From the sequence record AP019521.1: a DNA stretch of 64,000 nt; one strand, 5' to 3'. The DNA comes from Escherichia phage KIT01. Position numbers and translations under genes: made by a program. Positions 1 to 37,383 of the stretch are shown here, piece by piece (within the stretch, counting starts at the first letter, position 1; each line of letters starts with the position of its first letter). A model generated the notes under the pieces. It worked only from the letters and a program-made list of their open reading frames with translations. It did not search any database and had not been told where the DNA came from.

Positions 1-103
1 TTACTGAACGAGTTAGAATAGTGTTACCAGGTTTAAGCATGATACCTGGGTTAATACTGGAGAAGTTTTTCAGAATGTTCAGAGTTTCTTTAGAGAATTT
101 CAT
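1..103 (-). CDS. 45: sliding clamp gp45, N-terminal 34 codons only (gene continues beyond window start)
   Basis: ATG at 101-103 (minus); translation MKFSKETLNILKNFSSINPGIMLKPG resembles the T4 gp45 N-terminus; lies downstream of 46 as in T4. Confidence 0.6.
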   Translation of the reverse strand, partial: MKFSKETLNILKNFSSINPGIMLKPGNTILTRSV

Positions 104-131
104 AATGTTTCCTTATCAAGTCAAAAATTAA

Positions 132-545
132 TTAAGCAATAACGATCATTTGTTTACGAATGGATTCAGGCAGAGATTCAATATACTCTGGAATCTGGGA
201 AGCAACAATAGCACCAGCTTCAAGCAGTTGTTCGTCAAAATCTACGCAATAATCATCTTCGAGACGTTCAGAACCATCACGGTCGATAACCAGTTTAGCA
301 CCTGCGGCCAGTGAATCATTATAGTGGCGACGCATAATTTCTACCCACTTATCGGATACGTCGTTATCAATGATACCGTAGAGCATGAACTTAGTTTCTT
401 GTGGAAGAGACTGCAGACGACGTGCAGAGTTGGTATCAATATTCAGTACCCATGATTTACGGATACGGTTTTGATTATGTGGGTTGGAATCAGTACGAAT
501 GGTTTTAACTTGGATATCTTTAACAGTAATAGCGTTAGCAAACAT
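132..545 (-). CDS. hypothetical protein at the position of T4 rpbA
   Basis: ORF track 132..587 begins at a TTG; internal ATG at 545 preceded by GAGAGAAA chosen as start; synteny only. Confidence 0.4.
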   Translation of the reverse strand: MFANAITVKDIQVKTIRTDSNPHNQNRIRKSWVLNIDTNSARRLQSLPQETKFMLYGIIDNDVSDKWVEIMRRHYNDSLAAGAKLVIDRDGSERLEDDYCVDFDEQLLEAGAIVASQIPEYIESLPESIRKQMIVIA

Positions 546-607
546 AATATTTTCTCTCATTTGGTTGGTAGATGTATTATAAATCAATATTTTAAAGCAC
601 TTAACGT

Positions 608-802
608 TTAATCAAAGTATTCATAAACGAACCAGGCAGGGTTCCTGTTCGACATGATTCTATCATACTCTGACTTAAAAGCATTTCGGAGATAATCTTC
701 AGTAACAAGATGTTCGTCTCCAGAGAAGTTATTAACTAAAACATACCGCTTTAGTTCAGGAACGGCCAACAAATGCTGGCCTGTTATAAAATTGGAAGCC
801 AT
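608..802 (-). CDS. hypothetical small protein (position of T4 45.2)
   Basis: 64-aa ORF on the early strand between rpbA-like ORF and gene 46. Confidence 0.4.
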   Translation of the reverse strand: MASNFITGQHLLAVPELKRYVLVNNFSGDEHLVTEDYLRNAFKSEYDRIMSNRNPAWFVYEYFD

Positions 803-839
803 ATAAATATCTTTATCAGTCGCTGTATCAAATAAGGAT

Positions 840-1562
840 TTGATAATGAATTATAAATCAATATACGAAAAGCTTATTCAACGAGCAGTTAATAGAAATT
901 TAACTACCTATAAAGAACGTCATCACATTATACCACAATGCATGGGTGGGACGGATGACGCTTTAAACTTGGTAGACTTAACACCTGAAGAACATTACTT
1001 GGCTCATCAGTTGTTAGTTAAAATCCATCCAGATAACGCATCGTTAGTCTACGCAGCAAGAATGATGACAGTTAGCTCACCAAAAGCTGATAGGTCTAAA
1101 AATAAATTATTTGGATGGCTTCGTCGTAAGAATTCAGAAGCCCAAAAGGATAAAGAATTCTCTGAAGAAACCAGAAAGAAAATGTCAATTTCTGCTTTAA
1201 AAAAGCCTAGAGTTACCTGTCCACACTGCGGCAAAACTGGATTGGTAGGCAATATGAACAGATGGCATTTCGATAACTGCCCTAAAGGCCCTAATAAAGT
1301 GGACCGCTCTATATCTGAAGAGCAAAAATTAAAAATAAAGAAAGGCCTAGAAAACATGGTCTATAAAATTGTGGAATGTGAATTCTGCGGCCTTTCAGGA
1401 AAATCCTGTGTTATTGCCTCTCATAAAGTTTTTTGTAAGAAAAATCCTAACGGGCGCAAAAAAACAGAAAAGAAGGTAGAATGCCCTCATTGTGGTAAAC
1501 AAGGGAATTCCGGTAATATGAATCGTTGGCATTTCGATAACTGTAAAATGAAGCCTCAATAA
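840..1562 (+). CDS. HNH homing endonuclease (Mob-like) with C-terminal Cys/His zinc-ribbon repeats
   Basis: HHIIPQCMGG...N...EEHYLAHQ HNH motif; two CPHCGK...NRWHFDNC repeats; only plus-strand gene inside a minus-strand early block. Confidence 0.75.
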   Translation: MIMNYKSIYEKLIQRAVNRNLTTYKERHHIIPQCMGGTDDALNLVDLTPEEHYLAHQLLVKIHPDNASLVYAARMMTVSSPKADRSKNKLFGWLRRKNSEAQKDKEFSEETRKKMSISALKKPRVTCPHCGKTGLVGNMNRWHFDNCPKGPNKVDRSISEEQKLKIKKGLENMVYKIVECEFCGLSGKSCVIASHKVFCKKNPNGRKKTEKKVECPHCGKQGNSGNMNRWHFDNCKMKPQ

Positions 1563-1567
1563 GAGGC

Positions 1568-3250
1568 TTATTCCATAATTGTAAATCGACCAACCTTTTT
1601 CATTTGTAAATGCTGACCGTACGCTTGAGGGTCATGGTCCCTGTGGCTGATTATAAAAACATTACTGTCTTCAAGACTATTAAGAATACTTGCAATCGCC
1701 TTAACAGCCTCAGCGTCAACTGCTCCGTCAAAAACTTCATCCAACACTAATGTACTGATGTGGACTCCACTGACTTTTTCAGCAATATCACGCCATGTAA
1801 AAAGTAGTGCGATATCAATACGTGCTTTCTCACCCTGTGAAAATGAAGCATAACTAAAGTCTTCACGTCCACGTGATTTAATCGTCTCATTGAATTCTTC
1901 GTCTAGGGTAAAGACGTAGTCGGCTTCCATAATCTTCAAATAAGAATTTATCTGCTTATTAAAGATAGGAATGTATTTCTTAATAATGGAACCTTTAATA
2001 CCGGTATCCTTCAACATTTCTGTTAGAATTCCACGATGATATTTTTCCATTACCAATGTGGATTTGGTAGAGACGATTTTATCAAGTTCTGCTTGAAGCG
2101 CTGCAATCTCTTCGGCGTTACTTACGAACTCAGCAGCGGCCTGGTCAATTAATACTTTAACCTTTTTAGCTTTCTCTACGGCAGTAATGGCTTGTTGCTT
2201 ATGAGTAGCTATCTGGGATTTAATAGCCAGAGCTTTATTACGTTGTTCGGTTACTTGGTCCTTAATGAGCTTGAGTTCTTGATACTGCTCATTAATCTTA
2301 TCCAAAGATTTTTGAAGCTCAAAGTTCTTATCCTTAATTTTAGTAAGGATATTTCCGTGCTCTTCCAATCCTTGCATACACGTAGGACAGCTGCCGCCAG
2401 TTTCGTATAATTTCACGACCTTAGTAAAGGTTGCCATATCATTCTTGATTGCAAACCCTTTATTGCTCAGGTCACTCATGGAGTTGCTAGGGTCATCATC
2501 GACGATAACATTGAGTAATTCATCAGTTAGTTTTTCTATATTGCCCTTCGCAGTCCTGGCTTCTTTAACGAGCTCGTCATACATTACTTGTAGACGTGCT
2601 GCGTTCTCGCCAGATAATTTACGTTGACGTTCTTCGTTGTCATTATAAATTTTAATCTGTTGGGTAATAGAATCCTGTTTAACGTCGATTACTTGGATTT
2701 GGCTATTAGTCTCACGAATCAAAGATTTGTTCAACTTATCCATATCCGCTAATACAGAAACCTCTAAGAGGTCTTCGACGAGTTTTCTTCTTGCAGGAGT
2801 GGATAGGCCCATAAAAGGGGTATATCCAGCTGTCCCGAGTACGACAATCTGTTTGAAGCTTGTGTAGGACATTCCGATAAGCTGTTCAAATTCTGCTTGG
2901 AAGTCCTTACTGCTGGCAGATTCATCAAGACGTTCACCGCCACAAGAGATTTCAAAAACGTTGGGTTTTTGCCCACGTTTGATGTAGTATTCTTTGCCAT
3001 CATATTCCATCCACAGTTCGACCAAAAGGTCTTTCTTATTACTTGAGTTAATCAACTGCCCTTTCTTAACATCACGAAAAGGCTTACCAAACAGAGCAAA
3101 TGTAACAGCTTCAAGGAACGTAGATTTCCCAGCGCCATTTTTACCGGTGACTAAGGTCTTTTGGACCTTATCAAGTTGGATTGTAATAGGTTGCTGGCCT
3201 ACCGACATAATATTTTTATACGTTACTTTCTTTAACTTAAAAGTCTTCAT
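1568..3250 (-). CDS. 46: recombination endonuclease subunit gp46 (Rad50/SbcC-like ATPase)
   Basis: MKTFKLKKVTYKNIMSVGQ...GKNGAGKST Walker A and overall match to T4 gp46; ATG at 3250 chosen (track start 3262). Confidence 0.9.
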   Translation of the reverse strand: MKTFKLKKVTYKNIMSVGQQPITIQLDKVQKTLVTGKNGAGKSTFLEAVTFALFGKPFRDVKKGQLINSSNKKDLLVELWMEYDGKEYYIKRGQKPNVFEISCGGERLDESASSKDFQAEFEQLIGMSYTSFKQIVVLGTAGYTPFMGLSTPARRKLVEDLLEVSVLADMDKLNKSLIRETNSQIQVIDVKQDSITQQIKIYNDNEERQRKLSGENAARLQVMYDELVKEARTAKGNIEKLTDELLNVIVDDDPSNSMSDLSNKGFAIKNDMATFTKVVKLYETGGSCPTCMQGLEEHGNILTKIKDKNFELQKSLDKINEQYQELKLIKDQVTEQRNKALAIKSQIATHKQQAITAVEKAKKVKVLIDQAAAEFVSNAEEIAALQAELDKIVSTKSTLVMEKYHRGILTEMLKDTGIKGSIIKKYIPIFNKQINSYLKIMEADYVFTLDEEFNETIKSRGREDFSYASFSQGEKARIDIALLFTWRDIAEKVSGVHISTLVLDEVFDGAVDAEAVKAIASILNSLEDSNVFIISHRDHDPQAYGQHLQMKKVGRFTIME

Positions 3251-3500
3251 CGTTATAAGCATCCTTGATGCATGATTCAGCCATATGAATTAATGTTTCT
3301 GGAGTATCATCTACCATTACATTAAAGCTAAATTCCACAGCCCAATCGGTAGCAACATAAACTTTAATAAGCTCGTTGGTATCGCGAGTGCTCACGGCTT
3401 CAAACCAGAACTTAATTGTATTAGGTTGTCCGTCGTCATCAATAACGATACAGTCGTGTTCTAGTTCAAGGCCTGATTTTTTGAATTCATCTAAAGTCAT
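3237..3500 (-). CDS. hypothetical protein (46.1-like)
   Basis: 87-aa ORF coupled between 47 and 46 with ATGA overlap to gp47 stop. Confidence 0.5.
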   Translation of the reverse strand: MTLDEFKKSGLELEHDCIVIDDDGQPNTIKFWFEAVSTRDTNELIKVYVATDWAVEFSFNVMVDDTPETLIHMAESCIKDAYNDEDF

Positions 3501-4519
3501 CGTGTAACCTCATTATAAAGTTGCGCGGCCATAGTCTTAAGGGCTTTAACATCATCTTCAGTGTGGCCGTCAGGAAGGGCATCGATATAATCATACATCA
3601 TATCCAAGAGGGACTTAACTTCATCTTCCTCTTCAGAATCATCGATATCAACACTGTTATCTACCTTAGACACAATACGTAAAGAATGGACAACCTTTTC
3701 AAGCTCTGATTCGAACTTAGTAAGTCCATCATCGATTTTATCGACTATAACACGAACTGCGATATTTGTAAAATCTTTGTAATCGATAGTCGCATTTGGA
3801 TAATGAATCTTACGGTGCCAACAGGTTTCATTGATGATGAAATCCATCTTATGAGTTTCTGTATCGAAAATCCAGAAGCCGCGAGGGTCATTCTCATCAC
3901 CTGCAGTTAGGGTCCAGGGCGTACCAATATACTTAACGTTTGCTGCATCAGAAATAGTGTGGAAGTGGCCTGACCAAACCTGCTTATATCTCTTAAGGAA
4001 ATCAGGTTCTAAACCATGGGATTTCATTCCTTTATAGAAATAGAAACCATTTAATTCCCAGTGACCTATACAGAAATCTGCCGTGGTATTTTTGATATGG
4101 TCCATGATATCAGTCGTGTTTTCTTCACACATCCATGGAATCAAATCAATTTCGGTGCCATCAAAATTAACAGTAGTAGGTTTCTCGTAAACAGTAAAAT
4201 TTTCATACTGAGTAAGAAGTTCAGAAACTGCATTAGGAGTTATGCTATTTTTAAACGTTGCATCATGGTTACCAATTATAACATGGACTTTAATACCTGC
4301 ATCGCTGATAATTTCCACCAGACCACGATTAAATTCCATACATTTATGGGTGATAGCCTTGCGTACATCGAACCAATCACCATATTGAATCCATGTATCA
4401 ATATTGTTTGCTTTAGAATATTCTACAGCCTGTTTAATACCGTTAAGCTGGATTTTCTGAATCCAAGGGTCATCGGCTTTTACTCCGATATGCAAATCAC
4501 CTATATTCAAAATTTTCAT
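3497..4519 (-). CDS. 47: recombination endonuclease subunit gp47 (Mre11/SbcD-like phosphoesterase)
   Basis: MKILNIGDLHIG...GNHD metallophosphatase motifs; upstream partner of gp46. Confidence 0.9.
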   Translation of the reverse strand: MKILNIGDLHIGVKADDPWIQKIQLNGIKQAVEYSKANNIDTWIQYGDWFDVRKAITHKCMEFNRGLVEIISDAGIKVHVIIGNHDATFKNSITPNAVSELLTQYENFTVYEKPTTVNFDGTEIDLIPWMCEENTTDIMDHIKNTTADFCIGHWELNGFYFYKGMKSHGLEPDFLKRYKQVWSGHFHTISDAANVKYIGTPWTLTAGDENDPRGFWIFDTETHKMDFIINETCWHRKIHYPNATIDYKDFTNIAVRVIVDKIDDGLTKFESELEKVVHSLRIVSKVDNSVDIDDSEEEDEVKSLLDMMYDYIDALPDGHTEDDVKALKTMAAQLYNEVTR

Positions 4520-5370
4520 AATCTACCTTTATAATGTATTTCACTATTAAATTCTATCTCAGAAATCATAAAGCTTTTTATGCCGTCATTAGCCCAGATT
4601 TTCTTAGGTCTAGTAATTGTAACTGTAGGCTTAAAAATTTTATAAACCAAATTGTGATAATTACCATCCATAAAACCTTTAGCTAAAGCTATTTCTCTAA
4701 ATTTATACGGTGGCAAAAATCCAGTAGAAATCCAAAGCTCTTTTAATTCTTTTTGAATATCAGGGTCATATATCCCATCGGTCTTTTTCAAGTTTTTCTT
4801 ATGTTCATCGGTTAGAAAACTGCCAAGGACCCAAGATTCAGGTTGTTTTCCTTCTACAAATAATCCTTTATCAACGCCATTGTTATACCACTTCTTACCC
4901 TTATTATGACTAGATGCTTTATAATTAGGAGAACGACCTTCTACGTATCCTTCGGGGACTGTAGGTGCAAAGGTTTGTTCTAATGTAACAGGATTATAGG
5001 AATGAATATATCCTTTGGCATTATGAGAGCCATAAAGAGGGTGTTGCTCTTTAGGTAGCGAAAGCCCAAAGAATCCTTTAGGAGCGGCGACAGCCCTATT
5101 AAAGAATAGAGGATTTTGGGCTGCGTCAGTTCTTAACTGGTACATTCTTTCAGCTTCTAAAGCCTCTTCTCTTGTAGGGTGTTCGCTTACAATACACGAG
5201 TCGAATAATTCAGGATGCTCTAAAAGCTCATTTTTATATATTTCTTTATATGCTTTAGAAAGGACACTCCCGTGATACCCTTTCAAATGCTTCTCCAAAG
5301 TGGTAGACCCTATATAAAACGGTGGAAGCTTAGTCCCGGAATATATTGTCAGGTATGTGATGTATTTCAT
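4516..5370 (-). CDS. putative GIY-YIG-like endonuclease (Seg-like)
   Basis: N-terminal YLTIYSGTKLPPFYIGST...LEKHLKGYH resembles a degenerate GIY-(10)-YIG module; occupies the position of T4 a-gt; weak RBS. Confidence 0.4.
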   Translation of the reverse strand: MKYITYLTIYSGTKLPPFYIGSTTLEKHLKGYHGSVLSKAYKEIYKNELLEHPELFDSCIVSEHPTREEALEAERMYQLRTDAAQNPLFFNRAVAAPKGFFGLSLPKEQHPLYGSHNAKGYIHSYNPVTLEQTFAPTVPEGYVEGRSPNYKASSHNKGKKWYNNGVDKGLFVEGKQPESWVLGSFLTDEHKKNLKKTDGIYDPDIQKELKELWISTGFLPPYKFREIALAKGFMDGNYHNLVYKIFKPTVTITRPKKIWANDGIKSFMISEIEFNSEIHYKGRL

Positions 5371-5396
5371 AGATTTATTTTATCATCCATTCAGAA

Positions 5397-5421
5397 AGCA
5401 AAAAAGGAGCCTAAGCTCCTT
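5397..5421 (-). terminator. rho-independent terminator (hairpin AAGGAGC-CTAA-GCTCCTT plus T-run on minus strand)
   Basis: perfect 7-bp stem at 5404-5421 followed on the minus strand by TTTTGC. Confidence 0.5.
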
Positions 5422-5584
5422 TACCAACTAATACACCATACAGAGGTTCATGAGAAGACCTGAACTTGATTTTCTTATAGGTAATAGTACCTTCGTTTTC
5501 TGCTTTAATACGAGCGGCTTCAAATTGAAGAATCATCTCGTTTTTGTCAGATTTAATCTTATCAAAATCCATCGAATTCGTCAT
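5411..5584 (-). CDS. hypothetical small protein (57 aa)
   Basis: ATG at 5584 preceded by AAGAGG; below ORF-track size cut-off; stop inside terminator hairpin. Confidence 0.35.
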   Translation of the reverse strand: MTNSMDFDKIKSDKNEMILQFEAARIKAENEGTITYKKIKFRSSHEPLYGVLVGKGA

Positions 5585-5642
5585 TCATACGACCTCTTAA
5601 ACTTTTTCGTATTCGTCTTTCATTAGCCACCTGTCCACGTTA

Positions 5643-5843
5643 TCATCGTTGCCACCATTTCTTAAGTTGATGAGAATCTACCCAAACCTTGGCTACGGGC
5701 TCAATCTTAAAAATACCATCAGAATATTGGCCCATCATTTTGTATTCGGTTTCGGACTGCTTAATACAGATATTACCGTATGAGCGAAGTCTAAAGGCGG
5801 CTCCAATAAGAAGCCGTTTAAAGGGTTTATTTACTAGAGCCAT
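5643..5843 (-). CDS. hypothetical protein
   Basis: 66-aa ORF on early strand. Confidence 0.35.
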   Translation of the reverse strand: MALVNKPFKRLLIGAAFRLRSYGNICIKQSETEYKMMGQYSDGIFKIEPVAKVWVDSHQLKKWWQR

Positions 5844-6138
5844 TGACGATTTCCCAAATTTGTTTGCGGGTAGATTCCCACATCAATTGAACAAGTTCAT
5901 CAGTAACAGGTTGACGGTAAATACCACGTAATTTAATTAAAGCGTACTTATATGCTTCAAAGTTGTTTTCAAGTACAGCGCCTTGGGCATGGAGATTTAA
6001 ACGACGGATTTCACGAGCGTTCTTCTTAAGAATCTTAGCCGCTTGCGAATTAGCTTCTTTAATATTGTGCTCTTCTAAACGTTGCTGGGCTTCTTCAATT
6101 TGCTCATCAGTCAATTGAGAAATGACATGGCTTTGCAT
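5827..6138 (-). CDS. hypothetical protein
   Basis: 103-aa ORF; AAGGA 8 nt upstream of ATG at 6138. Confidence 0.45.
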   Translation of the reverse strand: MQSHVISQLTDEQIEEAQQRLEEHNIKEANSQAAKILKKNAREIRRLNLHAQGAVLENNFEAYKYALIKLRGIYRQPVTDELVQLMWESTRKQIWEIVNGSSK

Positions 6139-6139
6139 A

Positions 6140-6370
6140 TTAATCCTTTGGAGTCAATTCAATAGTGAAGTAGAAATTAGCGTTCTCAACATGATAACGA
6201 TAATCTACGTTATTGTCAGGAGAAGTGAATTCAATATTCCTGACGTTAAGTGGGTCAATATCAATAGGAAGGCCTTTAACATCCCGTAATATCAATTTAA
6301 TAAAATAAGGGAGTGCTTCGAAGTCTTCCATTCCATCTAAAAGTGGAGTGATATTAATCTGATGTTCCAT
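6140..6370 (-). CDS. hypothetical small protein
   Basis: ORF track 6140..6406 starts at GTG and overlaps gene 55; ATG at 6370 used; no clear RBS. Confidence 0.3.
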
Positions 6371-6911
6371 ATAAAAAATCCAGTTCACCAACTTTAGGTT
6401 CGGCACTCTTATCAGACCCTGGTGCTTTAGTTAAAGAGGTTTCATACTGAGTCATTTTGTCGTAGATATCTTGGATAAAGGTTTCATCTGCAATACCTAC
6501 CATGTCGTCATCATTACTGTCATAGACATTATGGACGAAGTAGCTATATTTCTTTGCCATTTCTTTACGTTCTTTTTTGATACGCTGAACGAAGGCATTA
6601 AAACAAGCCATAGTGATATATGCATGTGGGTTGTCGTATTTTGTTTCGTCGAAGTTGTGAAGACCTTTAATCGAAGCTTCGATTCCATCAGCAATCATTT
6701 CTTGCTTCCAAGATTGGGTATATCCTGAGAAGTTGAAACGTTTACTTAGTCCTTCAGCAATGAGCATAATAGCCAAGCCAATAACGTCGTTCTGGCGAAC
6801 TATTTTATTAGGATCGGTATTTTCTCTGAGCTCTGTTTTCCATTGGGTGATAGCTTTCAGAAGCTCCTTATTATTTACATAGTTATTTTTAGTCAGTTTA
6901 ATTTCGGTCAT
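6354..6911 (-). CDS. 55: late-transcription sigma factor gp55
   Basis: 185 aa; NYVNNKELL...[41 protein letters not shown] matches T4 gp55 closely. Confidence 0.9.
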
Positions 6912-6977
6912 TGTTACCTCGGATAACTCAAATCATAGGTCTATTATATCATGGTATTTGAAGACCCTTTTAAAGCA

Positions 6978-7241
6978 TCAACGGAGTAAGCAATAAGCCT
7001 GAAATACTGTTTCAAGGATTTGTGTGAACTCGGAATAAGAAATTGTATCAGTACATCCATGTTCAGACATATATCCACAAAATTCTTTAAAAAGACCTGG
7101 ATATTCACGATGGTTGTATTTGGAAATATGAGACTTCCATACTAAAGAAGTCTCACCACAAACAAACTCAACATCCATACGGTTATCTATTAAGAAAAAT
7201 CCGAGACCTTCGTAGGCGAGGGTGGTGGATATGGGTTTCAT
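6978..7241 (-). CDS. hypothetical protein
   Basis: 87-aa ORF, coupled to neighbours. Confidence 0.4.
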   Translation of the reverse strand: MKPISTTLAYEGLGFFLIDNRMDVEFVCGETSLVWKSHISKYNHREYPGLFKEFCGYMSEHGCTDTISYSEFTQILETVFQAYCLLR

Positions 7242-7504
7242 TGTAGGAATCGGGCTCCTTCCAAGGCATCATCTAGGTTATCGAACTCGTCGACATAATC
7301 AACACCGCCAACTTCGTCCTTCGCATAAAGCCAATACTGTTTAAATTCATATTCAATAATAAAGTGGTCGCCTTCAATTTGAAGAGCCCCATCACCATTA
7401 AATTGAACTGCATAACCTGTAAAGCGGACATCATTCAAGAGTTCTTCTTTCATAGCAATCATTTCCAAGTTTTTATCGTAATTAGAGAGTTTTATTTTAA
7501 TCAT
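7238..7504 (-). CDS. hypothetical protein
   Basis: 88-aa ORF, ATGA overlap with downstream gene. Confidence 0.45.
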   Translation of the reverse strand: MIKIKLSNYDKNLEMIAMKEELLNDVRFTGYAVQFNGDGALQIEGDHFIIEYEFKQYWLYAKDEVGGVDYVDEFDNLDDALEGARFLQ

Positions 7505-7830
7505 TTCGCTGCCTTAACAATTTTCAGGTCAACGAATTTTTTCTTACGTTGGTTTTTCATACGACGGATAGTTTTATCCGTGATTTCACCAGGGGCCCAA
7601 GCTTTAGATTCAACACCAAATGCAGCGACATCGAATTCATCAAGGATATATTGAACCAGGATTTCACGAATACCGTTCTTACCAATTTTCTGGTCTTTAG
7701 AGTGCATGATTGGTAATAGTTCAGCAACCCATTGGTCAAGAACCTGAGGAGTTACAAAACCGGTTTTCATCAGTTCGTTTACTTTATCGAAAGCGAAAGA
7801 GTTCAGTACGTTTTTAATAGCTTGTGACAT
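7501..7830 (-). CDS. hypothetical protein
   Basis: ATG at 7830 preceded by GAGGAAA; track ORF 7501..7926 has an N-terminal extension. Confidence 0.5.
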   Translation of the reverse strand: MSQAIKNVLNSFAFDKVNELMKTGFVTPQVLDQWVAELLPIMHSKDQKIGKNGIREILVQYILDEFDVAAFGVESKAWAPGEITDKTIRRMKNQRKKKFVDLKIVKAAK

Positions 7831-7864
7831 AATAATTTCCTCAGTTTTAAAGTTATAATCCGTA

Positions 7865-7899
7865 GGACCATTATACTCTGGTCCCAAGAGTTTGTAAAC
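7865..7899 (-). promoter_or_regulatory. early sigma70-type promoter with inverted repeat flanking the -10 (PeSL-like)
   Basis: minus strand GTTTAC(7894-7899)-17 nt-GTATAA(7871-7876); GGACCA/TGGTCC arms. Confidence 0.5.
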
Positions 7900-8099
7900 T
7901 ATTTTTGTGCTTTGGCGCCTTTCCAACCTTCATACATCATTCCGGCGGAAATTAACAAAGCACCCGAGCAACTTGAATACTTGTGATTCCAAAACCAGTT
8001 TAGAAAAACTTCGTCATCAATACCTTGAGCTATCATATTTTCAAAGAACTGACGACGAGCTTCAGCAATTCGCTGTGATAATTTAGATTCAGGATTCAT
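7899..8099 (-). CDS. hypothetical protein
   Basis: 66-aa ORF. Confidence 0.4.
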   Translation of the reverse strand: MNPESKLSQRIAEARRQFFENMIAQGIDDEVFLNWFWNHKYSSCSGALLISAGMMYEGWKGAKAQK

Positions 8100-8231
8100 T
8101 TAAATTTTCCAATTGCCATTTTCATCAATGAATTTAACCCAGTCATTTACTGACCACTTGGTTGTATCGCCTTTTGGACTAACATTTAAAGTGTATAGTC
8201 CTTGCTTAAAAAGCATTCGTTTGATATTCAT
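8100..8231 (-). CDS. hypothetical small protein
   Basis: ATG at 8231 preceded by GAGGAAAA; track ORF 8100..8324 overlaps neighbour out of frame. Confidence 0.3.
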   Translation of the reverse strand: MNIKRMLFKQGLYTLNVSPKGDTTKWSVNDWVKFIDENGNWKI

Positions 8232-8238
8232 ATTTTCC

Positions 8239-8532
8239 TCAGCTGTAACGATAACACTCGTTTGATTTACGTTTTGCAACTTGATGAGAAGTATTGTAAT
8301 CAGGTTCATCGTCGTTGTAAACATCTTTTTTCAGCTTTCTCACTTCTTTACGAAGTTGGCGATTCATTTCATTCTTAACTTCAGAGTCAACGCCTCTCAT
8401 ACGTTTCCACTTGTCGGAACGGAAGATATTTTCTTCAACCAAATCCTGACTTACGCCGACCGGTGCTTTACGACGTCCGGAATAATAAAAATCTTTTACA
8501 GACAATTCTTTACGACGAATAGTTTTACCCAT
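8239..8532 (-). CDS. hypothetical basic protein
   Basis: 97-aa Lys/Arg-rich ORF. Confidence 0.45.
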   Translation of the reverse strand: MGKTIRRKELSVKDFYYSGRRKAPVGVSQDLVEENIFRSDKWKRMRGVDSEVKNEMNRQLRKEVRKLKKDVYNDDEPDYNTSHQVAKRKSNECYRYS

Positions 8533-8534
8533 AG

Positions 8535-8789
8535 TTACCTCAGCAGTTTGTATCCAATAAGATTTTTAATGTATTGGACATCTTTGACATCCAAATCTAA
8601 CTTAATATCTTTCAGGCGTTCAGCCAGAGTAAGAAATGTTACACGTTTCCAATTCTTAACAGGGCAGCAATAAGTTTTCGGGCCGTTAGCGATTTCAATA
8701 TTTTTATCAGTGATGGTGAGAAAAATCAGGCGCTCATCATCCAGATTAAGTGTGACGATATTTTTCATTGAATGTAATTTCAGGCTCAT
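8535..8789 (-). CDS. hypothetical protein
   Basis: 84-aa ORF. Confidence 0.45.
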   Translation of the reverse strand: MSLKLHSMKNIVTLNLDDERLIFLTITDKNIEIANGPKTYCCPVKNWKRVTFLTLAERLKDIKLDLDVKDVQYIKNLIGYKLLR

Positions 8790-8968
8790 AATTTGATTTC
8801 CTTAGCTATTGAACAAAACACGCTACGGTCACATACCATCATTGGAATATTTCTATGGTCTAGTACACGATACCATACGTCTGAATCGCTAGCAGCAATT
8901 ACACGAACCGCACGCCCATTTACCAAATAATACTGGTCGGCTTTAATTTCTTTATCTTGGATAGTCAT
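8786..8968 (-). CDS. hypothetical protein
   Basis: 60-aa ORF with GAGGAGAA RBS; first gene after a PeSL-like promoter. Confidence 0.45.
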   Translation of the reverse strand: MTIQDKEIKADQYYLVNGRAVRVIAASDSDVWYRVLDHRNIPMMVCDRSVFCSIAKEIKL

Positions 8969-8974
8969 AATGTT

Positions 8975-9026
8975 CTCCTCATGTGTTGGTAGGATAGACT
9001 ATAACACGTGAGGAGAGGAAGTAAAC
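8975..9026 (-). promoter_or_regulatory. early promoter with SD-pairing inverted repeat (PeSL-like)
   Basis: GTTTAC(9021-9026)-17 nt-TATAGT(8998-9003); arms CTCCTCATGTG(8975-8985)/CACGTGAGGAG(9005-9015). Confidence 0.5.
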
Positions 9027-9027
9027 A

Positions 9028-9345
9028 CTAATCTTCAATTAAATCTCGGTCATAACCAAGTTCAATCAAAAGTGATTTGAAGGTAGGAATATTTTCTATT
9101 TTCTTATTATCGACAAATATGACAGGATAGCGTATCGCTAAGCTCTTGAAGCCGGCACGTTTGGCCAATGATACTATAAGAGGCTTGTCATATACTGCGC
9201 CTGACGGCGTCTGGTTAATCACGGGATAGAAAGTATGTGGGATAGAAAGGGAATTTAGGAGCGATAGAACTGCAATGCACCCTGGACAGCGCATGACTGT
9301 CTCAGGGATGCCGTAGATTTCGATTTTAGTTAACTTTTGGTCCAC
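9028..9345 (-). CDS. thioredoxin-fold protein (glutaredoxin/NrdH-like)
   Basis: IEIYG...RCPGC active-site-like CxxC and YPVIFVDNKKI motif typical of glutaredoxins. Confidence 0.5.
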   Translation of the reverse strand: MDQKLTKIEIYGIPETVMRCPGCIAVLSLLNSLSIPHTFYPVINQTPSGAVYDKPLIVSLAKRAGFKSLAIRYPVIFVDNKKIENIPTFKSLLIELGYDRDLIED

Positions 9346-9622
9346 AGGAAATAACTCCTTGGTAGTCCCATGTTTTTAGAACTTCGTCTTCATTAGTTCC
9401 GTATGGGACGTAAACCTGTACAAGAAAACCTGTGTCATCGAAAGAGAAATAAACTGTCGGTTTGATTCCGTGAATCTCTGATAGAGCATAGATGTCTTTA
9501 AGGTCTTCTTCCTTACCGACAAAGAATTCCGGGTTCAGGTCACAGTCATGGAAGTACCAATCATCACCGAACTTGTCCCATGCGGTCCAATTCAAAGCTA
9601 CATATTCTTCAAAACGTTTCAT
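9326..9622 (-). CDS. hypothetical protein
   Basis: 98-aa ORF. Confidence 0.45.
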   Translation of the reverse strand: MKRFEEYVALNWTAWDKFGDDWYFHDCDLNPEFFVGKEEDLKDIYALSEIHGIKPTVYFSFDDTGFLVQVYVPYGTNEDEVLKTWDYQGVISCGPKVN

Positions 9623-9846
9623 TCTTTCACCTTCATCATTTTAGAAATAACACTATGAACAGACTGGATTCGTTTTTCGAACTCAGACGCTTCAAGACCT
9701 TTTTCAGTACTCAGGGCGCCAATAATCACAAACAGCAATCCAAATGGGATGACCAGGATTAAAAGGCACACGATAAACAGGACAAATGTAATATTGGCCA
9801 GGATATCAGAAACAGCATTACGAAATTTGTTCATTAAAGAACCCAC
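9619..9846 (-). CDS. small membrane protein
   Basis: 75 aa with hydrophobic stretch FVLFIVCLLILVIPFGLLFVIIGAL. Confidence 0.45.
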   Translation of the reverse strand: MGSLMNKFRNAVSDILANITFVLFIVCLLILVIPFGLLFVIIGALSTEKGLEASEFEKRIQSVHSVISKMMKVKE

Positions 9847-9955
9847 ATGTTAGTTACAACAAATAACCATTGAGCAGGATACTCAACACCCATAATACGT
9901 ACCACATCGTTCAGAGATTCGGCTAAAGCATAAAATGTGTAGCCATAAAAATTAA

Positions 9956-10429
9956 TCATTTAAGCGATTTCCTCAGTTGTTTTTTGAATGAATCCACCAT
10001 TTGTTTCTTAGTGGCAGATTCATTATAAGTCATTCCATGTGAAAGCATTTCAGCAATCATTTCTTCCTTACCCAACCTGCTGAACTCTTTGGTTTTATCA
10101 GGAACGAAATTAGGATGAATATTGTTTTCAGTATAATCAGCTTTCAGATAGACCAGCAAATTCTCTAACCATTCGAGGTAGTCAACGTTTTGACCTTTAA
10201 GACCAGAACGGTTGAACTTATGCTTCATTTGTCCTTCTGCAGCATTGCACAGGTTACATAGTAAACCACGAACCTTACCGGCTTTTGGCCCGTTCAATTC
10301 ATGGTCGTGGTCAAGGTGGTTACTTTGAACATCAGGGTTTAATTCACGTTTACAAATCAAACACTTACCACATTGTACATCATAAAGTTTTTGTTTTTCT
10401 TCTTTGTATAATTTGCCGGTCAACAACAT
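9956..10429 (-). CDS. 49: endonuclease VII (Holliday junction resolvase) gp49
   Basis: 157 aa; MLLTGKLYKEEKQK...HLDHDHELNGPKAGKVRGLLCNLCN nearly identical in pattern to T4 endo VII. Confidence 0.9.
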   Translation of the reverse strand: MLLTGKLYKEEKQKLYDVQCGKCLICKRELNPDVQSNHLDHDHELNGPKAGKVRGLLCNLCNAAEGQMKHKFNRSGLKGQNVDYLEWLENLLVYLKADYTENNIHPNFVPDKTKEFSRLGKEEMIAEMLSHGMTYNESATKKQMVDSFKKQLRKSLK

Positions 10430-21707: not shown

Positions 21708-22280
21708 TCAACTCGTTATTTCTATCCAGTGCTTCCTGCACAATGACACGTAAGAATCGTTGCCACCTATAGAAACTTGGGCGCCGTCCTTAATTGCGAT
21801 ACCATCCTGGACCCTAGCAGTCATAGTAGCTTTACGGCCACAATGGCACACACCTTTGTACTCAACGAGTTTATCTGCTGTAGCGAGTAATTCAGCAGAG
21901 CCAGGAAACAGTTTACCCTGAAAATCAGTTCTTAGCCCGTAGCACATAACCGGGACATTATAATTGTCTACTATCTTTGCCAGTTGTTTTATCTGTGCAG
22001 GTTCTAAGAACTGTGCTTCATCCACAAATACACAGTGGATATCTTTTTGAGATTCAGCCCAACGATAGAACTCGTATAGGTCCATATCCGGAGTCACGGC
22101 ATTAGCCTCTTGACTAATCCCTATACGAGACGAAATGGTATGGCTTGATTCTCTATTGTCTATCGCAGGCTTTAAAAGGAGTACGCCCATACCGCGTTCT
22201 TTGTAGTTATGAGCGGCCGTTAGCAATGAAGCAGTTTTCCCGGAATTCATTGCCGCATAGTGAAAATAAAGTTGAGCCAT
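21708..22280 (-). CDS. tk: thymidine kinase
   Basis: 190 aa; P-loop AAMNSGKTASLL and C-terminal Cys cluster characteristic of type II thymidine kinase. Confidence 0.85.
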   Translation of the reverse strand: MAQLYFHYAAMNSGKTASLLTAAHNYKERGMGVLLLKPAIDNRESSHTISSRIGISQEANAVTPDMDLYEFYRWAESQKDIHCVFVDEAQFLEPAQIKQLAKIVDNYNVPVMCYGLRTDFQGKLFPGSAELLATADKLVEYKGVCHCGRKATMTARVQDGIAIKDGAQVSIGGNDSYVSLCRKHWIEITS

Positions 22281-22289
22281 ATTACCTTC

Positions 22290-22496
22290 TTAAAGACTAT
22301 TTACATAAGCAATTAATTCGTTTTCTTTCTCATCAAATCGATTAGCAAATTCTTCCAAATGGTCGGCATCTATCGGGCCATATTCATCATAAAAGGCATT
22401 TGCTTCCGTATGCTCATCCAAAAGCTCATGGATAAGCTCAAACAATTTATCTTTCTGTTCTTTACTCAGACTCATAACCATTGTACCTTTAAGCAA
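22290..22496 (-). CDS. hypothetical protein
   Basis: 68-aa ORF. Confidence 0.4.
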   Translation of the reverse strand: MLKGTMVMSLSKEQKDKLFELIHELLDEHTEANAFYDEYGPIDADHLEEFANRFDEKENELIAYVNSL

Positions 22497-22684
22497 TATT
22501 CTTCTACGTGCTGTTTACGTTTATTTTTATCTATAAAAGTATATTCAACATATTCGCCAATATACCATTTATCGGTGTTGTGTTGACTTTTTATAGGACA
22601 TTTAGTTACTCGAGTTTCGGTCCAGCGTCGAATAATTTCCGCTTTGTTTTTAGGGTCAAACGGATGTGGGTAATGGGCTTTCAT
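22472..22684 (-). CDS. hypothetical protein
   Basis: 70-aa ORF. Confidence 0.4.
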   Translation of the reverse strand: MKAHYPHPFDPKNKAEIIRRWTETRVTKCPIKSQHNTDKWYIGEYVEYTFIDKNKRKQHVEEYCLKVQWL

Positions 22685-23123
22685 AATCTACCACCACTAA
22701 ATTAATATCAGGAGTAAACAAATTAATCAATTGGTAAACCTTGTCCCAATCACCACCAGCAATACCACAACCAATGCGAGGGATATAAATTCTTGGTTTA
22801 AACAAAAGACCTTTTGCTTGTTGATTTAATTCTATCATACAGTTTACTAAAGCGCCGTAATCAAGATTAGGGCCTGGTTCGTATTGGGTATATAAATTAT
22901 AGCAAATTTGGCCATTATTACCTGTAGCTTGAGTAAACGTGCCAAGTTTTGCCAAATTACCTAAATAAGTAGTTTTATCGATAGCGAGAATAGGCGGATA
23001 AGCCTTAGCCAATTGCCCAGCTACACCTGAACCCATCGTGTGGAAACAGTTACACCCGTGTGCAACATTATTACCTTGAAGAAACAGGGCGACGATATCG
23101 CCCTTAATATAATCAATAATCAT
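22656..23123 (-). CDS. Macro-domain protein (ADP-ribose binding/processing)
   Basis: YIKGDI...NNVAHGCNCFHTMGSGVAGQ and IGCGIAGGDW resemble the Macro-domain diphosphate-binding loops (compare E. coli YmdB). Confidence 0.55.
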   Translation of the reverse strand: MIIDYIKGDIVALFLQGNNVAHGCNCFHTMGSGVAGQLAKAYPPILAIDKTTYLGNLAKLGTFTQATGNNGQICYNLYTQYEPGPNLDYGALVNCMIELNQQAKGLLFKPRIYIPRIGCGIAGGDWDKVYQLINLFTPDINLVVVDYESPLPTSV

Positions 23124-23476
23124 TTAGAGTTTAATCCTCGATTGTATGAGTCAACGAGTCTGTCTACCATAGACGCGCACATTTCTTTGTACTTTTTATC
23201 AGATGGAATACATTCAGTAACGTTTAGACGTTGCTCGTATCTTTTAGAAAGGGTTTTCTCTTTCATTCGGCGATGCTCTACGTCGTTCTGGCCATCTTTA
23301 AAAGCAGCTGTGATTTTTGAACTGAATTCGATAATGCATTCAGTATTACTCGGATGACAATAATCTTTTGCTGTACGGGTAGCATACTCGACAATTGAAT
23401 TATTACTATCATCAACTTGTGACGCTAATACTCCCGGAGCAATCAACATAAGCGCTATAGTCATCTGCTTAATCAT
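23120..23476 (-). CDS. secreted hypothetical protein
   Basis: 118 aa with N-terminal signal peptide MIKQMTIALMLIAPGVLAS. Confidence 0.45.
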   Translation of the reverse strand: MIKQMTIALMLIAPGVLASQVDDSNNSIVEYATRTAKDYCHPSNTECIIEFSSKITAAFKDGQNDVEHRRMKEKTLSKRYEQRLNVTECIPSDKKYKEMCASMVDRLVDSYNRGLNSK

Positions 23477-24016
23477 TTAATACACCGCCTCAAACATCTT
23501 TTTAGATTTTAGGTAATTGGCCTTTTCTAGAACTTCAGAAGCATATTTACTGCCTGCTTTGACGTTCCAGCCTGCATTATAAGAAGCAATCGCTTTTCTC
23601 AGGTCACCTTTGTGAACATCAATCCAATAAGACAGTTCAATGTAGGCCCAAGAGGCACTGTTCTGTCGTTTTTGGACCATACGAATTATTTCTTTGTCTG
23701 ACATCTTCCAACCTACCTGTTGAACACGACTTCTTAACGTAGGCAAGTAATTTTGGAACATGCCATAAGCATGGTGCTTATCTTTATTTAAACCCTGATT
23801 AATTCCGGCGGATGATTCCTGCCATAGTAATCCGGCCATAATATATCCTAATCCTTTTTGATTAGGGTTTTCTTTGAACTTTCCCGACTTTTGGTATTGT
23901 TCACCGAAAGCATACGCATAATGTAAATTATCGAGTTGTTCATTACTGAAAGTAGGCTCTACGCTATAGGCAGACATACTAACTGTCAATAGTAAAGTGG
24001 CTAATACTTTTTTCAT
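23477..24016 (-). CDS. periplasmic lytic transglycosylase-like protein (SLT domain)
   Basis: signal peptide; LLWQESSAGIN...AYGMFQ...ASYNAG resemble SLT catalytic motifs. Confidence 0.55.
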   Translation of the reverse strand: MKKVLATLLLTVSMSAYSVEPTFSNEQLDNLHYAYAFGEQYQKSGKFKENPNQKGLGYIMAGLLWQESSAGINQGLNKDKHHAYGMFQNYLPTLRSRVQQVGWKMSDKEIIRMVQKRQNSASWAYIELSYWIDVHKGDLRKAIASYNAGWNVKAGSKYASEVLEKANYLKSKKMFEAVY

Positions 24017-24028
24017 GAGACCTCATTA

Positions 24029-24487
24029 TTAAAGATAGATTACTTTCGTGCTGGTTTTACCTTCTAAACGTTTAGAGTTAACAAATGCCATACGACATTT
24101 AAGGGAATATCCTTTATCAGGATGTTTACGGTCTACGGTCATACCCAACCATAAGGTTTTATCGGTAATTTCGAGACGCAACGGGCGATACACTTTACCA
24201 GGGACAATTTCGGATTCAACATCAGGCAGAGGTTCCTGGATTAAGAATTCATGAATTTCTTTAACATGGATATGGAGTTGCTTGAATAAAGCAAAAACGT
24301 ATTTTTCGTCGATTTCACGTTGGATAGCACGGTCCAACAAGTGATTAGAGTACTTAATAAAGAAGGCTGGGACTCCGCTCTTAATGGCGGCTTTTTTGAT
24401 GGACGCATTCAGTTCACGGAATTCGGTTTCGAACTGACGACGTAATTTGTTGCGGCGGATGAATACTTCTGAATTAATTTCTGACAT
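24029..24487 (-). CDS. regB: site-specific endoribonuclease RegB
   Basis: 152 aa; EVFIRRNKLRR...KYSNHLLDRAIQREIDEKYVF...LRLEITD matches T4 RegB. Confidence 0.85.
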   Translation of the reverse strand: MSEINSEVFIRRNKLRRQFETEFRELNASIKKAAIKSGVPAFFIKYSNHLLDRAIQREIDEKYVFALFKQLHIHVKEIHEFLIQEPLPDVESEIVPGKVYRPLRLEITDKTLWLGMTVDRKHPDKGYSLKCRMAFVNSKRLEGKTSTKVIYL

Positions 24488-24494
24488 TTTGTAA

Positions 24495-24544
24495 TCTCCT
24501 GTAGATGATAGGTCTATAGTACCACGTCTACAGGAGATGTAAAC
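24495..24544 (-). promoter_or_regulatory. early promoter with 11-bp perfect inverted repeat pairing the regB SD (PeSL-like)
   Basis: GTTTAC(24539-24544)-17 nt-TACTAT(24516-24521); arms TCTCCTGTAGA(24495-24505)/TCTACAGGAGA(24527-24537). Confidence 0.6.
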
Positions 24545-24550
24545 TGCTTT

Positions 24551-24832
24551 TTAGTATTTCTCTTCAGGTCGGAAAACACCGCGACAAGCCCACATAGAAG
24601 CTTCTTTCAAACGGTCTTTGGCCTTAGACAGACAATCAGATGCAAAGAGTACCGGGTCCAACTCTTCTTCTGGGGTGGAAGAGCTGTTGGCTAGTCGATT
24701 ATATTCTTCGATAATCTCGTCTTCAAGCGCTTTAAAGATTAAACCCAATCGAACTTCAGCGTCTTTGATAGCATTCACTTTACTGATTTTATCGTCGGTA
24801 TGTGGTTTATAACCCTTGATATCTTCAATCAT
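24551..24832 (-). CDS. hypothetical protein (vs.3/vs.4 region)
   Basis: 93-aa ORF between regB and denV. Confidence 0.45.
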   Translation of the reverse strand: MIEDIKGYKPHTDDKISKVNAIKDAEVRLGLIFKALEDEIIEEYNRLANSSSTPEEELDPVLFASDCLSKAKDRLKEASMWACRGVFRPEEKY

Positions 24833-25860: not shown

Positions 25861-26021
25861 AGGTGTCTCTTAGTTGGTGGGGCCGTTCCTTGGCACATAA
25901 TTCATCCATGTATCCGTATGTAAACCCTTTACCGCACTTGGGCTCGACCTTATTACAGGTAGGGAAAGGTCCATCACTCAGAGGACGCGACGTTCATGAG
26001 GAGAGGGCCGGCTTGCCTTTA

Positions 26022-26321
26022 TTAGAAAGAACCAGAACCTTTAATTGTGTTCTGACGACCTTTATTTTCCAATTCGGAGTGGTCGATTTCATATGCTTGT
26101 GCTACGCCAAAGGCCTTTTTAACTTTAGCTAAAGAACCTTTAGATGTAACAATATTAAAAGTATTACCTTTGGTAAAATCAACCAAATCCACTTGTACAC
26201 CCTGCTTGCCGAGGCTTGCTACAATAGCATCAACATATTGTTGGTCTAAAGTACCTTGGACGCCAATTTGAAATGCTTTAGGAGCTTTGGCTTCTGTAAT
26301 AAATTCTTGATAAGTTTTCAT
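26022..26321 (-). CDS. capsid-targeted internal protein (CTS leader)
   Basis: N-terminus MKTYQEFITE matches the T4 internal-protein capsid-targeting leader ending at Glu10. Confidence 0.55.
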   Translation of the reverse strand: MKTYQEFITEAKAPKAFQIGVQGTLDQQYVDAIVASLGKQGVQVDLVDFTKGNTFNIVTSKGSLAKVKKAFGVAQAYEIDHSELENKGRQNTIKGSGSF

Positions 26322-26329
26322 ATTAAGCC

Positions 26330-26689
26330 TTAAAGATGGTCTAGTGCTGGGTTATGAGGTTTTTCTGCTTTAGTAGTGTTTTTATGCCAATCTGATTTAG
26401 AAACACGGATGGCATCAGCGCCATAAGAACTCTTAAGGAGACCTTTTTTATTGTACACGCTTATTGAAGTAAGAGAATCACCATTCCATGTAGCATGAAT
26501 GAAGTTAGATTTAGATTTAAGTTCTTTAGCCAAGCTCTGGTTAGTGGCCATGGAAGCAAAGTCTTTACCTGTAACTTTAAAAACTTCAGATGGGTTCAGC
26601 CCTTCTTTAGCCTTAGCCAATTGTTCAGGAGACATAGCTTCGTTAATGCGCTGAGTAGATTCAGTAATAAATTGTTGGTAAGTTTTCAT
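26330..26689 (-). CDS. capsid-targeted internal protein (CTS leader)
   Basis: N-terminus MKTYQQFITE; AAGGAA RBS; cotranscribed with the next CTS gene. Confidence 0.55.
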   Translation of the reverse strand: MKTYQQFITESTQRINEAMSPEQLAKAKEGLNPSEVFKVTGKDFASMATNQSLAKELKSKSNFIHATWNGDSLTSISVYNKKGLLKSSYGADAIRVSKSDWHKNTTKAEKPHNPALDHL

Positions 26690-26731
26690 ATTATTCCTTA
26701 AGTTGATAGAAGTATTCTATCACGGATTTAA

Positions 26732-27148
26732 TTAAGCGTAAATAGCCTTGCCGTAATGTTTGTACCAGGTAGGACGCTGTGCAATTTTTTCGTCCAAACG
26801 GGCTTGTGAAATGGCGATAGAAGCTTCGTGTGGAGTATAATCACCACGGAATTCCTGAGGAATATCACTAATGTCCTGGACCGTAGTATCCTTGATATTA
26901 AAACCACGTTTTAAACATTCCGCTATAAGCTCGATTTGACGTTTACGTAAAAACTCAAGCTTATCATAAAAGAAAGTAACATGGCCTGTACCAAGGATAA
27001 AAGTAGAGCTAATTTTAAAATCACGAACACGTTTACCATTAGCAACATGCTTACGAACTGCACCGAAAACACGTGGCAATTCACGATATTCAGCCATTAA
27101 GTGTTGGTCAGCCAATTCAGATACTAAGGTAAGGTTGATACGAGTCAT
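26732..27148 (-). CDS. denV: endonuclease V (pyrimidine-dimer DNA glycosylase) DenV
   Basis: [29 protein letters not shown]... matches T4 DenV; ATG 27148 after GGAG. Confidence 0.85.
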
Positions 27149-27177
27149 TTTAGTGTTCTCCATGTTTGTATGAGAAC

Positions 27178-27206: not shown

Positions 27207-27208
27207 TG

Positions 27209-27511: not shown

Positions 27512-27563
27512 ATGTTTCCTTAAAGGTAAATATTTTAATTGGTATGTTCAAGTAACTGTAGAT

Positions 27564-37376: not shown

Positions 37377-37383
37377 TAACCTA

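Follow-up and report, generated by a model that had tools for sequence, protein, structure and literature searches.

Absence of a-gt and nrdG/nrdD from the 47–49 interval of Escherichia phage KIT01 and a predicted arabinosyl-5-hydroxycytosine module in its Dhakavirus relatives

In the genome of phage T4, the genes from 47 to 49 follow the order 47-47.1-a-gt-mobB-a-gt.2 to a-gt.5-55-55.1 to 55.6-nrdH-55.8-nrdG-mobC-nrdD-49, which we checked on the reference record NC_000866. This region includes the gene for the alpha-glucosyltransferase (a-gt) and those for the anaerobic ribonucleotide reductase (nrdG and nrdD). Here, we analyze the corresponding interval in a stretch of 64,000 nt from Escherichia phage KIT01 (AP019521.1; the whole stretch is called the window below). 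A preliminary description of this DNA had reported that neither a-gt nor nrdG and nrdD are present at their T4 positions, and had suggested a phage that is devoid of glucosylated 5-hydroxymethylcytosine (hmC) and has a different accessory complement.

For RB69, another modification has been described, namely, arabinosylated 5-hydroxycytosine (PMC13326640), which supersedes the arabinosyl-hmC that had been proposed first (PMC6024577, 2018). RB69 gp48 was shown experimentally to be a 5-hydroxy-deoxycytidine monophosphate (5-hydroxy-dCMP) synthase that works with flavin and O2 (PMC13326640, Nucleic Acids Research 2026). As PMC13326640 relates from the HY126 work by He et al., the homologous synthases depend on a flavin, and the oxygen atom that they introduce stems from O2. 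The role of gp46:47 as the first DNA arabinosyltransferase is a hypothesis based on structure modelling and synteny, and RB69 gp51 and gp52:53 are the counterparts of HY126 AfhF and AfhE, respectively, which make uridine diphosphate (UDP)-arabinose (PMC13326640). The same source describes Thanatos as a mono-arabinosylated phage with a single transferase, and names Dhakaviruses among the genera predicted to have the arabinosyl-5-hydroxycytosine pathway. The same chemistry was found in another Mosigvirus (PMC13390438), and IME08 gp43 had been noted as a homolog of RB69 ORF53_52c (PMC6024577). HY126, Bas46/47, NP, and RB69 are all of the Mosigvirus type; HY126 was considered as an experimental case for the Dhakaviruses and was rejected, as it groups with Mosigvirus-like phages.

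The genes between 47 and 49 in the window and in related phages

T4 proteins from NC_000866 were used as tblastn queries against the whole window (E ≤ 0.01). No match was obtained in the 64 kb with a-gt (400 amino acids, aa), b-gt, gp42, NrdG, or the three NrdD exon/intron reading frames, and NrdD and NrdG of RB69 were likewise unmatched by tblastn. The gap from 47 to 55 comprises 1834 bp in the window versus 3152 bp in T4, and that from 55 to 49 comprises 3044 bp versus 6224 bp. The biggest open reading frames (ORFs) strictly within the interval have 284 aa (4516–5370) and 185 aa (gp55); thus, no ORF of a-gt or NrdD size exists there, and the absences noted in the preliminary description at the T4 positions hold for the entire window. 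Furthermore, ten of the larger window ORFs without an assigned function were devoid of glycosyltransferase, radical-SAM, and glycyl-radical Pfam domains.

The window is a segment of a T4-type phage that begins at rpbA/45.2, continues through gene 46, and ends around gene 15. In megablast searches with 8 kb and 24 kb stretches, it was 95–97% identical at the nucleotide level to QL01, IME08, Bp7, MX01, PSD9, and others, and the taxonomy lines of these five records read Dhakavirus; megablast revealed no database record with at least 99% identity over the full length. Judging from these identities and from the gene order shared with the annotated relatives (see below), the source of the window is a Dhakavirus, a JS98-like T4-type coliphage (Tevenvirinae). 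Two complete genomes of the genus were examined, those of QL01, which ranks with the closest relatives, and of JS98, which is the type species and belongs to the most divergent members. The genome-wide search for a-gt, b-gt, nrdD, and nrdG that had been proposed in the preliminary description was run on both of them by tblastn, and no homolog was detected throughout either genome. The 64 kb of the window represent only part of a genome of roughly 170 kb, and b-gt and gene 42 of T4 map outside the covered region, so that the glucosyltransferase and anaerobic reductase genes might have been relocated in a phage with ordinary glucosyl-hmC DNA. However, the two complete genomes of the genus are devoid of detectable a-gt, b-gt, NrdD, and NrdG, and the slot of b-gt and gene 42 holds an RB69-type cluster in 51 related records (see below), which makes such a relocation very improbable. 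The same observations support the suggestion of a phage without glucosyl-hmC DNA and with a different accessory complement.

The layout of the interval is widespread among relatives. In the Dhakaviruses JS98, QL01, IME08, and Bp7, the gene order is the same as in the window, namely, 46-46.2-47-(variable site)-a-gt.2 to a-gt.5-55-ORF072c-like-55.1 to 55.6-nrdH-ORF082c-like-55.8-small ORF-49, with a-gt, nrdG, and nrdD missing from the 47–49 region. Altogether, the 8 kb interval is colinear with 38 records over at least 80% of its length, and the 55.8-small ORF-49 junction without nrdG and nrdD occurs in 47 records. Among the latter is VR26, which belongs to a different genus (Gaprivervirus) and has the whole 47-to-49 layout of the window, without a-gt and nrdG/nrdD and with the 41-aa ORF before 49 (9834–9959 in the window, also annotated in QL01 and VR26); the junction DNA of VR26 is 80% identical to that of the window. 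The VR26 layout was read from positions 1–5400 of the extracted locus. Because the junction is found in these 47 records, VR26 included, and the relatives are colinear, the absence of a-gt and nrdG/nrdD is the normal inherited layout of the clade of Dhakavirus and Gaprivervirus, not a peculiarity of the isolate. Nothing specific favors a deletion in this isolate or an assembly artefact, other than that the 47/a-gt.2 junction varies among isolates through the turnover of homing endonucleases. Given that the contiguous junction occurs in independent records, one of them from another genus, and that colinearity extends over most of the interval with no remnants of nrdD or nrdG, this explanation is effectively refuted, and we assign it a negligible probability.

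The 41-aa ORF was examined as a candidate remnant of nrdD or nrdG and rejected, its alignments to NrdD and NrdG of RB69 and to NrdG of T4 being within the range of shuffled sequences; it is instead a conserved small gene of the family phrog_3350. The DNA of the 55.8/49 junction matched only the 55.8 and 49 flanks and nothing inside nrdG or nrdD, and contains no pseudogene debris. T4 and RB69 both have nrdG-nrdD at this position, so that the parsimonious explanation is a deletion in an ancestor shared by Dhakavirus and Gaprivervirus, before the genera split; the direction of the change is deduced from this distribution, with no surviving remnant at the junction to prove it. RB69 (Mosigvirus) is like the window in that no a-gt lies between 47 and a-gt.2; nevertheless, it has kept nrdG and nrdD between 55.8 and 49. 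Thus, the absence of a-gt and the absence of nrdG/nrdD are independent traits.

Every gene in 3497–10429 is located on the minus strand. According to the preliminary description, the 47–55 interval holds a GIY-YIG-like ORF and small ORFs, and the 55–49 interval only small ORFs, one of them glutaredoxin-like. The small ORFs of the first interval are indeed present and are orthologs of a-gt.2 to a-gt.5, and the GIY-YIG label is weakly supported and not established (see below). The glutaredoxin-like ORF is nrdH, and its neighbors can be specified as T4 orthologs, arranged in T4 order, and ORFs similar to RB69 ORF072c, ORF079c, and ORF082c, with no anonymous filler. The genes of the interval are as follows (percentages are identities to the named protein).

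3497..4519, minus: gene 47, left anchor, an SbcD/Mre11-like subunit of a recombination nuclease; 70% to T4 gp47 along its whole length (tblastn 3500–4519)
4516..5370, minus: predicted free-standing homing endonuclease ORF of 284 aa at the position of 47.1/a-gt/mobB in T4; phrog_10820, phrog_314
5411..5584, minus: a-gt.2 ortholog; 58% to T4 a-gt.2; phrog_2140
5643..5843, minus: a-gt.3 ortholog; 45% to T4 a-gt.3; phrog_1648
5827..6138, minus: a-gt.4 ortholog (DUF2654); 41% to T4 a-gt.4; PF10849, 4.5e-23
6140..6406, minus: a-gt.5 ortholog, the real start probably being near 6370; 41% to T4 a-gt.5 at 6158–6370; phrog_1169
6354..6911, minus: gene 55, late-transcription sigma factor, 185 aa; 79% to T4 gp55 (tblastn 6357–6911)
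6978..7241, minus: small ORF similar to RB69 ORF072c (DUF7200), not in T4; PF23830, 1.8e-31; 35% to RB69p072
7238..7504, minus: 55.1 ortholog; 48% to T4 55.1
7501..7926, minus: 55.2 ortholog (DUF7570), with a listed start (TTG) that probably lies too far upstream; 65% to T4 55.2 at 7513–7830; PF24454
7899..8099, minus: 55.3 ortholog; 75% to T4 55.3
8103..8231, minus: 55.4 ortholog; 93% to T4 55.4
8239..8532, minus: 55.5 ortholog (DUF5499); 73% to T4 55.5; PF17603
8535..8789, minus: small ORF similar to RB69 ORF079c (DUF7290), not in T4; PF23962, 1.2e-43; 47% to RB69p079
8786..8968, minus: 55.6 ortholog; 56% to T4 55.6
9028..9345, minus: nrdH, glutaredoxin-like, kept despite the absence of nrdG/nrdD; 61% to T4 NrdH (tblastn 9031–9336); phrog_22 thioredoxin domain, 1.5e-13
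9326..9622, minus: ORF similar to RB69 ORF082c, not in T4; 51% to RB69p082; phrog_2749, 2.4e-48
9619..9846, minus: 55.8 ortholog, predicted membrane protein; 42% to T4 55.8; phrog_1930
9834..9959, minus: 41-aa ORF where T4 and RB69 have nrdG(-mobC)-nrdD; phrog_3350, 1.7e-22
9956..10429, minus: gene 49, endonuclease VII, right anchor; 87% to T4 gp49 (tblastn 9959–10429)

The predicted modification module of the Dhakaviruses

In T4, segA, b-gt, and gene 42 are located between uvsX and imm/43. The corresponding slot of the Dhakaviruses, from uvsX to gene 43, is situated just upstream of the window and was read from the relatives. It contains six genes in QL01 (21758–26469) and in JS98 (22069–26804), listed here with their RB69 counterparts.

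QL01 gp042 (22648..23346) and JS98 gp039 (22959..23657): RB69 gp48, 79–80% identity; about 25% to T4 gp42
QL01 gp041 and JS98 gp038: RB69 gp46 and gp47 (a single gene that a sequencing error divides in two), 64–70% identity
QL01 gp044: RB69 gp51, 62% identity (QL01 and JS98)
QL01 gp045: RB69 gp52 and gp53, 41–44% identity (QL01 and JS98)
QL01 gp043, a thymidylate-kinase-like nucleotide kinase: RB69 gp45, 37–38% identity (QL01 and JS98)
QL01 gp046 (25969..26469) and JS98 26304..26804, 166 aa, last gene of the cluster: without a counterpart in RB69 or a Pfam family

The N-terminus of the last protein is lipoprotein-like (MKKLIIAMSMLLSGC). Pfam searches revealed a thymidylate-synthase fold in QL01 gp042 and an NTP_transferase and an APH-type kinase domain in gp045. 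The cluster recurs at 93–100% identity in 51 phage records, to which every close relative of the window belongs. The search for gene 42, which had been proposed as well, yielded a homolog in the relatives, and this homolog, the sole one in QL01 and JS98, is of the hydroxylating type, similar to RB69 gp48, and not of the hydroxymethylating type of T4 gp42. Besides this 5-hydroxy-dCMP synthase, the relatives possess homologs of the first arabinosyltransferase and of the enzymes for UDP-arabinose synthesis. In addition, QL01 and JS98 encode dCTPase (gp56), Alc, DenA, and DenB. For RB69 gp3 (the second transferase) and gp55 (the arabinose-5-phosphate isomerase), no match was found in QL01, JS98, or the window (E ≤ 0.01), and gp49 and gp50 are also missing from QL01 and JS98.

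Taken together, these results make it likely that the window derives from a Dhakavirus that exhibits the gene absences typical of its clade and carries an RB69-type arabinosyl-5-hydroxycytosine module in place of glucosylation. Gene content, synteny, and homology were computed here, and the enzymology is that published for RB69 and HY126, transferred by homology. Glucosyl-hmC is most likely absent from the DNA, which is probably not based on hmC at all; the absence of a-gt makes sense because these phages would not make glucosyl-hydroxymethylcytosine. The following chemistry is what we infer for the Dhakaviruses. A synthase with a thymidylate-synthase fold would hydroxylate dCMP to 5-hydroxy-dCMP, which would be phosphorylated and then built into DNA by the phage polymerase. 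A phosphatase of the AfhF/gp51 type and an arabinose-phosphate kinase/UDP-arabinose pyrophosphorylase of the AfhE/gp52:53 type would provide UDP-arabinose, from which a single transferase of the gp46:47 type would arabinosylate the DNA. Because the Dhakaviruses lack gp3, the second transferase of RB69, one arabinose per base is to be expected. E. coli KdsD and GutQ produce arabinose 5-phosphate in the biosynthesis of 3-deoxy-D-manno-octulosonate (KDO). Since the RB69 isomerase gp55 is missing in the Dhakaviruses, these host enzymes would presumably supply the arabinose 5-phosphate. Both gp3 and gp55 can be regarded as accessory rather than core features, because the mono-arabinosylated Thanatos encodes a single transferase.

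Several points weigh against this interpretation. The presence of the cluster in the phage from which the window originates is extrapolated from relatives with 95–97% identity, on the premise that the remainder of its genome matches theirs. The homolog of the first arabinosyltransferase (QL01 gp041) has no Pfam domain, so that its role is transferred from the assignment made for RB69. The absence of the arabinose-5-phosphate isomerase and of gp50 could mean that the sugar or the route differs from that of RB69, and an unrecognised second transferase might have escaped the searches run. Finally, the searchable literature yielded no nucleoside analysis of a Dhakavirus. This gap in the chemical data, as well as the missing isomerase, gp50, and second transferase, would also be compatible with cytosines that carry no sugar, that is, with bare hmC, bare 5-hydroxycytosine, or unmodified cytosine, the RB69-like genes being inactive or used otherwise; moreover, the sister genus Gaprivervirus has been reported to be devoid of an hmC-type synthase gene (PMC12115623). 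However, the synthase, the transferase, the phosphatase, and the kinase/pyrophosphorylase are intact and highly conserved across the 51 records, which argues for purifying selection and a working pathway. Furthermore, dCTPase, alc, denA, and denB, which typically accompany a complete replacement of cytosine, are retained in the relatives, and the missing isomerase could be compensated by KdsD and GutQ of the host. We therefore consider sugar-free cytosines improbable, and favor the arabinosyl-5-hydroxycytosine module.

The requirement of the synthases for O2 raises the question of a functional link between the loss of nrdG/nrdD and cytosine hydroxylation: if the modification depends on O2, an anaerobic supply of deoxynucleoside triphosphates would be useless, and the genes for it might have decayed. 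The flavin-using synthases, with oxygen from O2 as related for HY126 (PMC13326640), and the combination of synthase and missing nrdG/nrdD in the Dhakaviruses would fit this scenario. However, RB69 retains nrdG-nrdD in spite of having the same synthase, and, conversely, VR26 lacks nrdG/nrdD although its genus has been reported without the synthase (PMC12115623). Such a link is thus unlikely, and as a general rule it was rejected, because the loss of nrdG/nrdD does not go along with the type of modification among the three genera that were compared. The independent, clade-wide absence of a-gt and nrdG/nrdD described above remains our preferred explanation.

Homing endonuclease genes and tRNAs in the window

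The largest ORF of the 47–49 interval, 4516–5370, overlaps the start of gene 47 by ATGA. It matches two PHROG families of homing endonucleases (phrog_10820, 8e-83; phrog_314, 1e-17), and neither Pfam and NCBIfam, including GIY-YIG, nor a sequence search of solved structures (PDB) yielded a match. A weak alignment with T4 SegA via the motifs YIG/GYxGS/AER/NPxxxN had a z score of 3.5, compared to 2.2 for the control, SegA versus I-TevII, and a single-sequence AlphaFold model reached a predicted local distance difference test score of 31.7, too low for the fold to be read. The ORF probably encodes a Seg-type GIY-YIG enzyme, a class assignment that is not proven by these motifs.

Relatives of this ORF are present in 173 phage records and have a patchy distribution over many host genera, which include Escherichia and, for the more distant relatives, Klebsiella, Serratia, Aeromonas, Rhizobium, and Acinetobacter. 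A full-length copy with 99% identity was found only in LQ5. QL01 gp060, labelled "HNH endonuclease", is a version of 205 aa, the first 115 residues of which are 99% identical, and IME08 has an unannotated truncated copy of 185 codons (91% identity) in the gap between gp47 and a-gt.2 (record positions 37284–37838, about 4779–5333 of the locus). As annotated, the coding sequence of IME08 gp47 exceeds those of its relatives by about 80 codons. At the same site, JS98 has 47.1 only, and nothing is annotated in Bp7. Thus, the endonuclease occupancy of the 47/a-gt.2 site differs, with full-length genes in the window and LQ5, shortened ones in QL01 and IME08, and none in JS98 and Bp7. Because of its PHROG family match and its presence or absence at an intergenic site among close relatives, the ORF is predicted to be a sporadic free-standing homing endonuclease, that is, a mobile gene and no modification enzyme. 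T4 has mobB at the same site; therefore, the 47/a-gt.2 junction serves mobile endonuclease genes as a landing site.

The window contains further genes of this kind. An ORF of 240 aa with an HNH/zinc-ribbon signature (840–1562, plus strand), transcribed opposite to its neighbors 45.2 and 46, is 48% identical to the N-terminus of T4 MobB and 37% identical to MobC, and is, by these similarities, a further free-standing homing endonuclease; a homing endonuclease is found at the 45.2/46 site also in Bp7, and none in QL01, JS98, and IME08. Between genes 53 and 5, a SegA-like GIY-YIG endonuclease of 211 aa (43937–44572, plus strand) is 42% identical to T4 SegA and matches the TIGR01453 group I intron endonuclease family (6.5e-14); in QL01 and JS98, gene 5 directly follows 53, with no such insert. 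An ORF of 195 aa between genes 14 and 15 (61523–62110, plus strand) shows HNH similarity of the MobB/MobC type (39–40% identity over about 66 aa), and the gap between these genes holds no gene at this position in QL01 and JS98. All four endonuclease genes of the window differ in presence from the closest relatives. The window has two transfer RNA (tRNA) genes, Arg-TCT and Met-CAT (37757–37913, minus strand), and three (Arg, Asn, and Met) are annotated in JS98. An Rfam scan of the window revealed these two tRNAs only, with no further family and no group I intron.

Implications and comparison with RB69 and T4

The pattern of absences is already known for the group, and has been public in the annotation of JS98 for years, where the cluster genes are named "RB69 orf045c-052c-like". 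A first account of the chemistry appeared in 2018, and its revision of 2026 names the Dhakaviruses, so that the discovery value of these results is small, and their use lies in annotation. Several RefSeq product names are misleading (QL01 22648–24235, RB69 25497–28094): by homology to RB69 gp48, the labels "thymidylate synthase" and "dCMP hydroxymethylase" should read 5-hydroxy-dCMP synthase, and the "phosphoheptose isomerase" is, by the same kind of assignment, a small HAD-type sugar-phosphate phosphatase.

The only ribonucleotide reductase that QL01 and JS98 encode is the aerobic one of class Ia, NrdA/NrdB, together with NrdH and NrdC. No statement on the ribonucleotide reductase content of JS98 was found in the main text of a survey of phage ribonucleotide reductases or in other literature matches. 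Without oxygen, the Dhakaviruses, whose own reductase is NrdAB plus NrdH and NrdC, would presumably depend on NrdD and NrdG of the host. Because an O2-requiring hydroxylase is combined with the loss of the phage anaerobic reductase, there is a slim chance that replication with fully modified DNA depends on O2, or on host NrdDG and residual oxygen. If so, strict anaerobiosis would result in cytosine-containing DNA that is open to the phage's own functions of the Alc/EndoII/EndoIV type and to host restriction, a physiological limit that is not predicted from the T4 paradigm. Many Dhakaviruses come from stool or faeces and are considered for phage therapy in the gut. The combination of the hydroxylase with a missing anaerobic reductase in gut-derived phages is a speculative and only mildly novel angle, and is weakened by the retention of nrdG/nrdD in RB69.

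With RB69, the window shares the small ORFs 072c, 079c, and 082c, and the Dhakaviruses share with it the genes for the 5-hydroxy-dCMP synthase, the first arabinosyltransferase, the phosphatase, the kinase/pyrophosphorylase, and the TMP-kinase-like protein. In contrast, gp3, gp49, gp50, and gp55 are present in RB69 but not in QL01 and JS98, and the gene order within the cluster is also different. T4 shares with the window the backbone 46-47 ... 55 ... nrdH-55.8 ... 49-pin-nrdC as well as the small a-gt.x and 55.x ORFs, but differs in having 47.1, a-gt, and mobB after 47, and nrdG, mobC, and an intron-containing nrdD before 49. Upstream of gene 43, T4 has b-gt and a true dCMP hydroxymethylase, whereas the nearest Dhakavirus equivalent of the latter is an enzyme with a thymidylate-synthase fold that is 25% identical.

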